Positions 3,326-7,842 of a DNA stretch of 64,000 bases are shown here, piece by piece. The position numbers and the translations under genes are program-made. Below the pieces are notes generated by a model, which saw only the letters and a list, made by a program, of their open reading frames with translations, had not been told where the DNA came from and did not search any database. Numbering within the stretch: position 1 is the first letter of the stretch; each line of letters starts with the position of its first letter. The DNA comes from Escherichia coli (GTDB lineage: Bacteria > Pseudomonadota > Gammaproteobacteria > Enterobacterales > Enterobacteriaceae): the NCBI RefSeq assembly GCF_003334405.1, contig NZ_QOWM01000003.1, one strand, 5' to 3'.

Positions 3326-3559
3326 ATACAGCGAACTCCATTGGTTTAGTTGGATATTTACTGTGCTGGACAAAAACGGTTTGCGGGGAAATCTTAGTTA
3401 AGTAGAATGACTGCGGGTGCTTGAGGCTATCTGCCTCGGGCATGGACACCAACGGCAGATAGAGAAAAGCCCCAGTTAACATTACGCGTCCTGCAAGACG
3501 CTTAACATTAATCTGAGGCCAATTTCATGCTAGACACATGTAGGTTAGCCTCTTACGTG

Positions 3560-5200
3560 CCGAAAGGCACGGAGAAGCAGGCTATTGTTAACACCAAGCT
3601 GTAATGTCCCCTTTGAACCATTCTAAAATGTCCCCAGACAATTCTCTGGGGGATTTTTCATGATCAAAGAGACTGTTACGATGAGTCATAAGGAACTCCA
3701 CCGACTTCAGATTATTCAGGAACAAGCTGCGGCACGCATTGGCATTTCTATTCGGCAGGTTAAACGTCTGGTGCAACGGTATAGAAATGAAGGGCCTTCT
3801 GGTCTGGTTTCCCACCGACGTGGAAAGCGTCCTAATAATTCCTTTTCTACTGAATTCAGAGCAACAGTAATTTCACTCCTCAAAGGCCGTTACGCTGATT
3901 TTGGACCTACGTTTGCGTGCGAAAAATTGCGCGAGATACACGGTTTATCTTTATCCGTTGAAACTCTCAGAAAGTGGATGATAGAAGAGGGGTTATGGCG
4001 TGAACGCCGTCGTAAAATTGCCCGTATATATCAACGCCGCATGCGACGACCATCTTACGGTGAACTGATCCAGATTGATGGCTCACCTCATGACTGGTTT
4101 GAAAATCGAGGCCCCAGATGTACACTGATCGTTTTCATTGATGATGCCACCAGTGCGTTGATGGCGTTGCGTTTTGTGCCTGCTGAAACAACCCGGGCTT
4201 ACATGGAAACCCTCCGGGGTTACCTTAATGATCATGGCGTACCGCTCGCTCTCTACTCTGATAGACACAGTATATTCAGGGTAAATAACCCAGAGCGGGA
4301 AGGTGAGCTGACCCAGTTCACTCGTGCGATAAAGACACTGGGCATCGAGCCAATCCATGCCAACAGCCCGCAGGCAAAAGGGCGGGTAGAGCGCGCCAAT
4401 CAGACACTACAGGACAGGCTGGTCAAAGAAATGCGGCTTCAGAATATCAGTGATATTGAAACAGCAAATGCATGGTTGCCGACCTTTATTGAAGCCTATA
4501 ACAACCGGTTCGCTACGTCGCCTCGTACTACTGATAATGCTCATCTTGATGTGCACCATTCTGAAGAGGAACTGGGTTATATCTTCAGCCTACAGGCGAA
4601 GCGCGTTCTGTCTAAAAATCTCACTTTCCAGTACAAAAGCAGTGCGTTTCAGGTACGCAGTGAGGGCCGGGGATATCGACTTAGGCATTCGGTTGTTACT
4701 GTATGCGAGAACTTTGACGGTGAAATTAACGTTCTGTATGACGGGAAAGCGCTGGGCTGGGAAAAGTATGTTGATGGCCCGGAGCCTATACCACTGGATG
4801 ATGAAAAGAGTGTCCATGAACGAGTGGATAATGCCCGTATTGATTTACGCTCAAAATACTATGTTAAACCTAAAGCTGACCATCCCTGGCTTACGCGCCG
4901 AACGCAAAGTCATCAGCAAGTTAAGCCCCCGAAGTTACCTAAAAAGAAGCCTGATCCCGATAAAAAAGATTGAAACCAAGATCGATTCGGTTGAGTGCAT
5001 ATCCATTCATAGGGTAGATTCTTAAGTCGCGTTTCTGGTGTTCATTTTCGGGTGGTTTGTTACTTGTTTTACCGGGGATATGCCAGAAACGCGCTGAGTC
5101 AGTCTGGGCGGTGCGCGTAATGAGGCGTTATGGTAAATAGCCTATGCTAATGTCCGCTAAGAGCAAGAAGCGGAAGTTGGCAGTTTTGTGGACTGTCCCC
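3560..5200 (+). mobile_element. insertion sequence carrying the DDE transposase; ends not resolved
   Basis: Single transposase ORF flanked by non-coding sequence. I could not find clean terminal inverted repeats or a target-site duplication by eye, so boundaries are approximate. Confidence 0.45.
3660..4973 (+). CDS. DDE transposase with N-terminal HTH and rve/integrase-core domain (ISNCY/IS1202-like or IS481-like)
   Basis: 437 aa. N-terminal HTH (IGISIRQVKRLVQRY), then D (QIDGSPHDW), D (LYSDRHS) and E (RVERANQT) in integrase-core spacing. Basic C-terminal tail. Confidence 0.8.
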   Translation: MIKETVTMSHKELHRLQIIQEQAAARIGISIRQVKRLVQRYRNEGPSGLVSHRRGKRPNNSFSTEFRATVISLLKGRYADFGPTFACEKLREIHGLSLSVETLRKWMIEEGLWRERRRKIARIYQRRMRRPSYGELIQIDGSPHDWFENRGPRCTLIVFIDDATSALMALRFVPAETTRAYMETLRGYLNDHGVPLALYSDRHSIFRVNNPEREGELTQFTRAIKTLGIEPIHANSPQAKGRVERANQTLQDRLVKEMRLQNISDIETANAWLPTFIEAYNNRFATSPRTTDNAHLDVHHSEEELGYIFSLQAKRVLSKNLTFQYKSSAFQVRSEGRGYRLRHSVVTVCENFDGEINVLYDGKALGWEKYVDGPEPIPLDDEKSVHERVDNARIDLRSKYYVKPKADHPWLTRRTQSHQQVKPPKLPKKKPDPDKKD

Positions 5201-5409
5201 ACAAAAGTGACTACAGAAATAGTTGCAATTCATAATTGATCATGGGTTGTCAGTTAAACTCGTGGCGATTTAAATAGACTAATTGGGAGTGCGTCCATTA
5301 CTTATATCTTGTAATGTTAACTATCAGAAATGATACAAAGATAATATGTCTTTAAAGAAAAGGCTGATGGCGAAAAGTGGCCCGATGAGGGCCACAATAC
5401 GGCTGTCAC

Positions 5410-5742
5410 TTAGACGTAAATATCAATGGTGCCAGCGGTATTTGTATCGTCTTTTTTCTCTTCTTTTTTATCAGGCTGAACTGTCGCGTCTTCATTCTTT
5501 TTCTCTGCCTGCTGCCTTAACAACTGCTCCAGTTGAGCCCAGAGGCTTTCAATTTGCTTCTGTACCAATGCAGCCATTTCTTTTTTCTGCTGTGTCGTCA
5601 TCCCCTCTTCCGATGAGATTTTCCCAAGCTTTTCAGTCAGCACCTGAATTTGTCTTGTGATTTTGGCTATTTCTGATGTTCCTTCCGGGGCGGAGTTGTT
5701 TGAAATAACGGTTGAGGTATTTCCCTGAATTGTGACAGACAT
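5410..5742 (-). CDS. flxA: FlxA-like protein
   Basis: 110-aa protein recognised as Qin-prophage FlxA; AAGGAG RBS; sigma28-type promoter upstream. Confidence 0.85.
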   Translation of the reverse strand: MSVTIQGNTSTVISNNSAPEGTSEIAKITRQIQVLTEKLGKISSEEGMTTQQKKEMAALVQKQIESLWAQLEQLLRQQAEKKNEDATVQPDKKEEKKDDTNTAGTIDIYV

Positions 5743-5765
5743 AGATTTCTCCTTTTAAAAAAGCA

Positions 5766-5792
5766 CTATCGGCATGCACAAAAAAATCTTTA
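5766..5792 (-). promoter_or_regulatory. sigma28 (FliA) class-3 promoter of flxA
   Basis: On the minus strand TAAAGATT-N11-GCCGATAG, matching consensus TAAAGTTT-N11-GCCGATAA, about 25 nt upstream of the flxA start. Confidence 0.6.
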
Positions 5793-5944
5793 ATCGTATT
5801 TCTTGTGTCATTAATTGTTTGATGTTCAGATTGTTTTCCTCGCGGGCTGGCGCGCCTCAGAAAGTAAAGCTTGTTGACAGGGGTAAACGTTCGGCAATAA
5901 TTTTCTGCCGCATGCGGGTGTTGCATAAAACGTGTTACGTTCCT

Positions 5945-6250
5945 TTATCGACAGGTCAGGTCACCGCTCACCCGCCGACGAGAAAGCAACACTGACATGC
6001 TAAAGCAAAAAATAGATGAATAAGTTGAGTTGTGCATATGTAGCCTGACCGTCACAAAGTATATGGTGTCTGTACCAGTAAGATGATGGCCGGACTCTTT
6101 AAAAACGAGCTGACCTGCACAATACAGGATGGACTTAGCAATGGCTGCTCCTGGCACAAAGCGGACAGTGATCACCGTTCTTACGACTACTTTCTGACTT
6201 CCTTCGTGACTTGCCCTAAGCATGTTGTAGTGCGATACTTGTAATGACAT
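5945..6250 (-). CDS. ydfV: YdfV-like hypothetical protein
   Basis: 101-aa ORF positioned between flxA and relB as in Qin. Its 5' end lies over the relBE operator on the opposite strand, so coding status is uncertain. Confidence 0.5.
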   Translation of the reverse strand: MSLQVSHYNMLRASHEGSQKVVVRTVITVRFVPGAAIAKSILYCAGQLVFKESGHHLTGTDTIYFVTVRLHMHNSTYSSIFCFSMSVLLSRRRVSGDLTCR

Positions 6251-6266
6251 TTGTAATTACAAGAGG
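6236..6266 (+). promoter_or_regulatory. relBE operator/promoter (relO-like TTGTAAT repeats)
   Basis: TTGTAATGACATTTGTAATTACAAG with a TTGTAATTACAA palindrome immediately upstream of relB. Confidence 0.55.
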
Positions 6267-6274
6267 TGTAAGAC

Positions 6275-6514
6275 ATGGGTAGCATTAACCTGCGTATTGA
6301 CGATGAACTTAAAGCGCGTTCTTACGCCGCGCTTGAAAAAATGGGTGTAACTCCTTCTGAAGCGCTTCGTCTCATGCTCGAGTATATCGCTGACAATGAA
6401 CGCTTGCCGTTCAAACAGACACTCCTGAGTGATGAAGATGCTGAACTTGTGGAGATAGTGAAAGAACGGCTTCGTAATCCTAAGCCAGTACGTGTGACGC
6501 TGGATGAACTCTGA
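6275..6514 (+). CDS. relB: RelB antitoxin
   Basis: 79 aa, recognised as RelB; stop overlaps relE start (ATGA coupling). Confidence 0.9.
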   Translation: MGSINLRIDDELKARSYAALEKMGVTPSEALRLMLEYIADNERLPFKQTLLSDEDAELVEIVKERLRNPKPVRVTLDEL

Positions 6515-6801
6515 TGGCGTATTTTCTGGATTTTGACGAGCGGGCACTAAAGGAATGGCGAAAGCTGGGCTCGACGGTACGTGAACAGTTGAAAAAGAAG
6601 CTGGTTGAAGTACTTGAGTCACCCCGGATTGAAGCAAACAAGCTCCGTGGTATGCCTGATTGTTACAAGATTAAGCTCCGGTCTTCAGGCTATCGCCTTG
6701 TATACCAGGTTATAGACGAGAAAGTTGTCGTTTTCGTGATTTCTGTTGGGAAAAGAGAACGCTCGGAAGTATATAGCGAGGCGGTCAAACGCATTCTCTG
6801 A
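6514..6801 (+). CDS. relE: RelE mRNA interferase toxin
   Basis: 95 aa, recognised as RelE. Confidence 0.9.
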   Translation: MAYFLDFDERALKEWRKLGSTVREQLKKKLVEVLESPRIEANKLRGMPDCYKIKLRSSGYRLVYQVIDEKVVVFVISVGKRERSEVYSEAVKRIL

Positions 6802-6872
6802 ACCAAAGCATGACATCTCTGTTTCGCACCGAAGGTGACACTTCTGCTTTGCGTTGACAGGAGAAGCAGGCT

Positions 6873-7028
6873 ATGAAGCAGCAAAAGGCGATGTTAATCG
6901 CCCTGATCGTCATCTGTTTAACCGTCATAGTGACGGCACTGGTAACGAGGAAAGACCTCTGCGAGGTACGAATCCGAACCGGCCAGACGGAGGTCGCTGT
7001 CTTCACAGCTTACGAACCTGAGGAGTAA
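6873..7028 (+). CDS. hokD: Hok-family small membrane toxin
   Basis: 51 aa MKQQKAMLIALIVICLTVIVTALVTRKDLCEVRIRTGQTEVAVFTAYEPEE; below ORF-track cut-off, found by hand translation downstream of relE. Confidence 0.8.
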   Translation: MKQQKAMLIALIVICLTVIVTALVTRKDLCEVRIRTGQTEVAVFTAYEPEE

Positions 7029-7244
7029 GAGACCCGGCGGGGGAGAAATCCCTCGCCACCTCTGATGTGGCAGGCATCCTCAACGCACCCGCACTTAACC
7101 CGCTTCGGCGGGTTTTTGTTTTTATTTTCAACGCGTTTGAAGTTCTGGACGGTGCCGGAATAGAATCAAAAATACTTAAGTAGCGCGCAGGGATAAGAGG
7201 GATGGTCCCTTAAAGGGGAGAGCTAATTATCCGGAAGGATTCTG

Positions 7245-7496
7245 ATGATGAACATCGAAGAACTGCGTAAAATTTTTTGTGAAGATGGCCTCTATGCTGT
7301 GTGCGTTGAAAATGGAAATCTTGTTAGTCATTACCGCATTATGTGTTTGCGAAAGAATGGGGCTGCGTTAATTAATTTTGTGGATGCTCGGGTCACGGAC
7401 GGATTTATCTTGCGCGAAGGTGAGTTTGTCACTTCATTACAGGCATTGAAAGAGATCGGAATAAAAGCTGGCTTTTCTGCTTTTTCAGGAGAATAA
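7245..7496 (+). CDS. rem: Rem-like protein
   Basis: 83-aa ORF at the Qin rem position. Confidence 0.7.
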   Translation: MMNIEELRKIFCEDGLYAVCVENGNLVSHYRIMCLRKNGAALINFVDARVTDGFILREGEFVTSLQALKEIGIKAGFSAFSGE

Positions 7497-7562
7497 ACTC
7501 ATCTACAATCTTGCGCGGGGCTGAACTCCCGCTGAGTAACACCGTGCCACCGGAGAAAACCG

Positions 7563-7841
7563 ATGGCACGCAACGCAAAATATTACAATTCTGATAATTC
7601 GCCCGTTCTTGCCTGCACGCACGGGCGGTATTCTCACGCATTCAAGTCTGAATGGTTCCAGCACCCTCCATGCACTGCAGAACAGGCCGAATGGCTGATT
7701 CATTCTTACCGCAGGCGCGGGTTCGAGGTTAAGAAAGCTCTCAGTCTCGACTATCGGCACTGGATAATCTCTGTCAGGCTGCCTTATTCCGAACGCCCAC
7801 CACGTGCGTCCCGCACTTTCCAGCAACGGATCTGGAGGTAA
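7563..7841 (+). CDS. hypothetical protein (92 aa) upstream of ydfU
   Basis: ATG with GGAGAA RBS; ends 1 nt before the likely GTG start of ydfU. Confidence 0.5.
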   Translation: MARNAKYYNSDNSPVLACTHGRYSHAFKSEWFQHPPCTAEQAEWLIHSYRRRGFEVKKALSLDYRHWIISVRLPYSERPPRASRTFQQRIWR

Positions 7842-7842
7842 C

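Follow-up and report, generated by a model that had tools for sequence, protein, structure and literature searches.

The flxA locus of Escherichia coli raises the question of how a gene lodged in a prophage comes to be expressed together with the flagellar genes of its host and which of the two, phage or bacterium, supplied the regulatory connection. We examined a 64-kb stretch of E. coli DNA (referred to here as the window), for which a near-consensus sigma28 promoter had been predicted directly upstream of flxA inside a prophage, with the consequence that a phage-borne gene would be wired into the host motility regulon. We consider, with a probability of approximately 0.95, that this site is the class 3 FliA promoter of flxA, a small coiled-coil gene in the nin-like region of a Qin-type prophage. 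The promoter and its interpretation are correct but already known: the promoter was described in 1997 and has since been confirmed genome-wide, and its identification in this window therefore matters little. What is new here, and modestly interesting, is a sigma28 promoter that is family-wide and apparently ancestral among FlxA-like genes, together with a scenario in which the gene was captured by a phage. Features of the locus are listed in Table 1.

Table 1. Features of the flxA transcription unit and its upstream neighbor (window coordinates)
Feature	Coordinates	Strand	Basis or remark
-35 element TAAAGATT, sigma28 (FliA) promoter	5785..5792	minus	Read from sequence; consensus match
11-nt spacer TTTTTGTGCAT	5774..5784	minus	Length kept, sequence variable among homologues
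-10 element GCCGATAG, sigma28 promoter	5766..5773	minus	Read from sequence; consensus match
Predicted transcription start	5757..5759	minus	Inferred from usual sigma28 promoter geometry, ~7-9 nt past the -10 element
Shine-Dalgarno AAGGAG	5749..5754	minus	6 nt 5' of the flxA ATG; kept in aligned homologues
flxA CDS, 110 aa	5410..5742	minus	ORF list; K-12 annotation flxA
Terminator-like hairpin, 15 nt past the flxA stop	5373..5395	minus	Sequence and folding
ydfV, upstream ORF (context, outside the flxA transcription unit)	5945..6250	minus	ORF list; K-12 annotation

The predicted promoter is present on the minus strand and agrees with the consensus TAAAGTTT-N11-GCCGATAA at 14 of 16 positions, the two mismatches being an A at position 6 of the -35 element and a G at the last position of the -10 element. 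The end of the -10 element is separated from the flxA ATG (position 5742, same strand) by 23 nt (TGCTTTTTTAAAAGGAGAAATCT). No other match with two or fewer mismatches occurs on either strand of the 64-kb window, in which 0.07 such matches are expected; with up to three mismatches, four sites were found against 0.71 expected. Taken by themselves, the sequence statistics make the promoter call suggestive but not conclusive. Dinucleotide-preserving shuffles of the window gave one match with two or fewer mismatches in 7 of 100 cases, and the three weaker 3-mismatch matches elsewhere in the window indicate that such strings do occur, as would be required if the motif were a chance match in AT-rich prophage DNA that lacks promoter function. 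The flxA site is nevertheless a candidate promoter because it lies 23 nt before the ATG, on the right strand and with a strong AAGGAG in between, a placement and orientation that chance would not favor. Chance also fails to account for the invariance of both elements in diverged homologues in which the neighboring bases have changed, and it is refuted by FliA ChIP-seq, SELEX, and expression data on the identical sequence, including a 140-fold loss of RNA in a fliA deletion. Position and strand, conservation, and published experiments thus settle the promoter, and a fortuitous match is very improbable.

The published record places flxA in the host motility regulon, as the original prediction had proposed. 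Ide and Kutsukake named flxA as a FliA-dependent gene in 1997 (Gene 199:19), and the title of that report describes the gene as dispensable for motility development. A 28-mer identical to that of the window, TAAAGATTTTTTTGTGCATGCCGATAGT, is a FliA ChIP-seq site with a FAT score of 16 (Fitzgerald et al. 2014, PMC4183435, Table 2). The expression check proposed along with the prediction, that of flxA in fliA mutants, has in effect already been published in the same table, in which flxA RNA drops from 280 in motile MG1655 to 2 on deletion of fliA, a difference marked as significant (PMC4183435), and the same authors count flxA among "well-characterized FliA-dependent promoters." Microarray data agree in direction: flxA (annotated "Qin prophage") was down 28.4-fold when fliA was deleted and up 8.2-fold 5 min after FliA was induced (Zhao et al. 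2007, PMC1935009). A genomic SELEX peak of the RpoF holoenzyme, with an intensity of 23.2, falls in the ydfV/flxA spacer (Shimada et al. 2017, PMC5493296).

These data also bear on whether flxA could be transcribed mainly by sigma70, either by transcription running on from ydfV or from an operon of the prophage, or from a housekeeping promoter close by, with the sigma28 site playing a minor part. Such an arrangement is conceivable in that ydfV lies upstream on the same strand and prophage early and nin regions are often cotranscribed, but in a scan of positions 5200..6300, no site resembling a sigma70 promoter was detected on the minus strand, and the sole strong one lay on the opposite strand. 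That flxA RNA declines to 2 units when fliA is deleted (PMC4183435) disfavors ydfV read-through, and neither comparable residual transcription nor a long ydfV-flxA transcript has been reported. We regard predominant transcription by sigma70 as very improbable. The plus-strand site is itself near consensus (TTGACA-16-AATAAT, 11/12; 5874..5901) and is located in the flxA-ydfV spacer, from which it points antisense into ydfV, approximately 375 nt upstream of relB.

For the FliA promoter, the following sequence of events is proposed. FliA-RNA polymerase recognizes TAAAGATT-N11-GCCGATAG and would initiate flxA transcription approximately 15-17 nt before the ATG, generating a leader with a strong ribosome-binding site and a short monocistronic mRNA whose 3' end is probably at the hairpin just past the stop codon. 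This hairpin has a 7-bp GC-rich stem (5389..5395 with 5377..5383), a loop at 5384..5388, and a TTTT at 5373..5376. Folding of the 44 nt around it gave a minimum free energy of -15.6 kcal/mol (z-score of -2.8), a value reached by 1 of 200 shuffles. A consensus terminator scan did not report the hairpin because its T run consists of only 4 T. Promoter, ribosome-binding site, ORF, and terminator-like hairpin together look like a self-contained cassette. Because of the FliA promoter, the lack of a nearby minus-strand sigma70-like site, and the RNA loss in the fliA deletion, flxA is expected to follow the flagellar hierarchy, in which FlhDC induces fliA, export of FlgM frees FliA, and FliA activates class 3 genes; expression would then track this hierarchy and not the prophage's own circuits. 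Changing the -10 element from GCCGATAG to GCCGCGAG would be expected to abolish flxA expression.

The location of flxA within a prophage, the other part of the original prediction, is supported by its Qin-type lambdoid neighbors and by complete identity to the Qin region of K-12. The segment from 5300 to 6300 (1,001 bases) is 100% identical to flxA-ydfV-relB of K-12 MG1655, and the flxA promoter of the latter (Qin, b1566) is identical to that of the window. In K-12, the flxA region belongs to the Qin cryptic prophage and lies between dicC/ydfX/ydfW and relBE-hokD-rem-ydfU-ydfT, and the prophage neighbors in the window include relBE, hokD, rem, ydfU, the Q antiterminator, cspB/F/I, and lysis genes. 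The region occurs in 1,283 of 5,426 complete E. coli genomes (approximately one-quarter). A tblastn search of 50,697 phage records recovered flxA in one only, the Qin-like PhiR42_1 from ECOR13, with the same neighbors, and thus gave no evidence that the gene is common in sequenced free phages.

The window comes from a strain other than K-12. Downstream of flxA, the two genomes differ: K-12 has the remnant ydfW, whereas the window has an intact ISNCY-family transposase of 437 aa (3660..4973, plus strand). The 49-aa K-12 YdfW is identical at 48 of 49 positions to the C-terminal 49 residues of this transposase, and ydfW therefore looks like a 3' transposase remnant and not a gene of its own. Immediately to the left of the transposase is a match to the Rfam sok antitoxin (RF01794; 104 bits; 3415..3586, plus strand), beside which there is no obvious hok ORF; conversely, the Rfam scan reported no sok match beside hokD (6873..7028). 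Two cspA-type thermoregulator leaders (Rfam; 10432..10824 and 13334..13719, plus strand) were placed at the prophage cspB and cspI genes by offset from the C600 annotation, and an Rfam IS009 RNA match (221.5 bits) lies at 17227..17425 on the plus strand.

The other arm of the window prophage abuts uspF, ompN, and nifJ, unlike the flank of Qin in K-12. The Qin-type prophage (approximately 5400..20200) is joined there to uspF-ompN-nifJ(ydbK)-ldhA-ydbH, genes that in K-12 flank the Rac prophage and not Qin. The same junction is found in one C600 assembly (NZ_CM132660.1; 98% coverage, 99.7% identity). This arrangement suggests either recombination between homologous tail-fiber/invertase ends of these two prophages or a different layout of resident prophages.

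We examined the extent to which the promoter is retained in relatives of flxA. In prophage-type homologues with 85% and 65% protein identity, TAAAG, GCCGATA, and the 11-nt spacer length are invariant, while the flanks diverge. The homologues with 85% identity are Enterobacter copies that adjoin either an integrase close to icd or lysis genes, and the one with 65% identity is a metagenomic copy. Among 57 IMG/VR contigs with flxA, both octamers are kept in 55 (53 as in the window and 2 with the -35 element TAAAGATA), and the other 2 carry a single substitution in the -10 element. In more distant FlxA homologues (38-45% identity), sigma28-like sites precede the ATG by 26-32 nt. Across the flxA homologues, the distance from the -10 element to the ATG is 23-32 nt, with the promoter placed and oriented to serve the gene, and in both prophage-type and chromosomal homologues, the promoter elements are conserved above the flanking bases.

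An exhaustive HMMER search revealed FlxA relatives outside prophages, of approximately 105-125 aa and with roughly 30-45% protein identity (25-45% for the chromosomal FlxA-like genes overall). Their chromosomal slot, which is constant in many Enterobacteriaceae and in Pantoea, has the order gltX, Val-Val-Val-Lys tRNAs, the flxA-like gene, a LysR gene (yfeR), an SBF-like gene (yfeH), a small QSregVF_b gene, and ligA. Scanning one genome per species with a narrower family alignment yielded at least 47 chromosomal loci, of which 46 were usable. The matches listed represent more than 20 genera, including Enterobacter, Citrobacter, Kluyvera, Kosakonia, Leclercia, Lelliottia, Cedecea, Yokenella, Buttiauxella, Pluralibacter, Trabulsiella, Siccibacter, Phytobacter, Mixta, and Winslowiella; none of them is from Klebsiella, Raoultella, E. 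coli, or Salmonella. Klebsiella and Raoultella are recorded in one study as lacking fliA. A second, chromosomal-type copy of flxA was not detected in E. coli genomes at the sensitivity of blastn, and the Citrobacter flxA-like gene matched only the prophage flxA of E. coli (70.8% identity over 165 nt).

These chromosomal genes have the same type of promoter. The core T[AC]AAG-N13-15-GCCGATA, allowing at most 1 mismatch in 12 and required within 70 nt upstream of the start codon, was found in 40 of the 46 loci (among the matches listed) versus 4 of 7,035 equal-size control windows from the same loci. In loci whose start codon was assigned to the conserved MTTI-type methionine, 27-34 nt separate the end of the core from that codon. 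In five additional loci, a perfect GCCGATAA is paired with a variant -35 element, and the sole locus of the 46 with no sigma28-type site is a doubtful Burkholderiaceae match. At the same syntenic locus, Pantoea (Erwiniaceae) carries TCAAGTGA-N11-GCCGATAA. We consider the in silico evidence for this family-wide promoter pattern to be solid. Given the contrast between the chromosomal loci and the control windows, sigma28 control is probably ancestral to the FlxA family.

The direction of transfer is a separate matter, and one alternative is that the sigma28 promoter arose de novo inside a phage instead of being captured with the gene from a bacterial chromosome. The upstream regions of the prophage-type and chromosomal-type genes indeed have only the promoter elements in common and not the flanking sequence, and their -35 variants differ (TAAAG in the prophage type versus mostly TCAAG in the chromosomal type), as an independent gain might leave them. 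Against this, almost all branches of the family, including the intermediates with 65% and 45% identity, have sigma28-type promoters with the same spacing to the ATG, and syntenic chromosomal genes bear the promoter in both Enterobacteriaceae and Erwiniaceae; a single promoter in the ancestor explains this more parsimoniously than repeated gains would. De novo origin in the phage is thus unlikely. Since distant chromosomal FlxA-like genes have the same promoter type, a lambdoid phage most likely captured a flxA cassette already wired to FliA, a scenario drawn from synteny and taxonomic breadth and not from phylogeny. By the same comparison, it is unlikely that the phage itself evolved the connection to the FliA regulon, of which the gene was probably a member before its capture. 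An incomplete literature search found no paper stating this ancestral, capture-based reading, and the phrase "FlxA-like" returned none; the text of a study on FliA promoter conservation (bioRxiv 10.1101/188474) does not mention flxA.

The FlxA protein belongs to the Pfam family FlxA (PF14282; E = 2.9e-14, with residues 7-101 aligned on model positions 2-96 of 101) and matches PHROG 11044 (E = 1.8e-71), a family of unknown function in PHROGs. Relatives share a coiled-coil core and a C-terminal IDIYV in the family alignment. An AlphaFold2 model built with that alignment (mean pLDDT of 66) predicts a helical hairpin formed by residues 20-44 and 50-87 (pLDDT of 80-90); the N terminus (residues 1-19), which is Ser/Thr/Gly-rich across the family, and the C terminus ending in the conserved IDIYV are of low confidence. 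A Foldseek search of the PDB with this model returned only generic helical hairpins, all with E values above 0.6, and a profile search of PDB sequences returned only designed coiled coils, neither giving a functional lead. As NCBIfam and PADLOC had no match for FlxA or YdfV, no known defense role is supported for either protein, and flxA was still among the uncharacterized Qin genes in a 2024 survey. FlxA protein and mRNA are reported to be oppositely regulated at 42 C, the direction not being stated in the text, in a report that also describes impaired export of FlgM via the flagellar apparatus at this temperature (PMC6551532). Opposite regulation of protein and mRNA would fit a FlxA that is exported by the flagellum, although export through the flagellum is, on the basis of this discrepancy, speculation.

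In its architecture, the flxA promoter resembles the canonical class 3 promoters of flgMN, tar-tap-cheRBYZ, fliC, and motAB-cheAW, with which it has TAAAG(T/A)TT-N11-GCCGATA(A) in common, and the -35 octamer of flgMN is identical to the TAAAGATT of flxA (PMC4183435, Table 2). Unlike the canonical class 3 targets, flxA falls outside the structural, chemotaxis, and regulatory genes of the flagellar system. A second cryptic-prophage gene of E. coli K-12 in the FliA regulon is ykfB (CP4-6 prophage), but its FliA promoter is intragenic (inside yafY) and the gene is less strongly regulated (118 to 42), whereas flxA has an intergenic promoter of its own and an approximately 140-fold dependence on FliA.

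The morons of lambdoid phages, which are autonomous promoter-gene-terminator cassettes, provide another comparison. Like a moron, flxA combines a promoter of its own, a strong ribosome-binding site, and one ORF with a terminator-like hairpin (termination being predicted) within the prophage. It is flanked by phage modules, and its expression from the prophage does not depend on the circuits of the phage. It differs from morons in relying on an alternative host sigma factor instead of sigma70 and in showing no compositional contrast with its neighbors: the GC content is 0.40-0.45 for flxA and 0.43-0.47 for the neighboring phage genes, and there is accordingly no compositional sign of a foreign insert.

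Taken jointly, these results can be read as follows: FlxA-like proteins would be conserved members of the FliA regulon across Enterobacterales, encoded ancestrally on the chromosome and always driven by sigma28, and E. coli would have the gene only through capture by a Qin-type prophage, in about one-quarter of strains. The predicted disordered N terminus, the helical hairpin, the IDIYV terminus, and the report at 42 C together leave it possible that FlxA is exported through the flagellar type III apparatus or has its site of action there. We place the joint reading as a whole at about even odds. The locus is a clean example of a prophage gene under a host alternative sigma factor, and it suggests that regulon members can travel between species on prophages with their wiring already in place. 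The conservation of the sigma28 promoter throughout the family also suggests that a motility-linked role of FlxA is under selection, despite the dispensability stated in the 1997 title, and gives a concrete reason to seek a FlxA phenotype.

The three 3-mismatch sigma28-like matches elsewhere in the window are probably chance occurrences or weak sites. One lies at 20378..20404 (minus strand), in sense orientation within ompN, and another at 63967..63993 (plus strand), 7 nt from the end of the window. The third, TAAAGGAG-N11-GCCGATAA (21429..21455, plus strand), is situated in the ompN-micC spacer, approximately 136 nt upstream of MicC (Rfam match at 21591..21711). Neither ompN nor micC is named in the text of the ChIP-seq study on FliA (Fitzgerald et al. 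2014, PMC4183435), and an RpoF SELEX peak is recorded in the ompN-micC spacer of K-12 (Shimada et al. 2017, PMC5493296).
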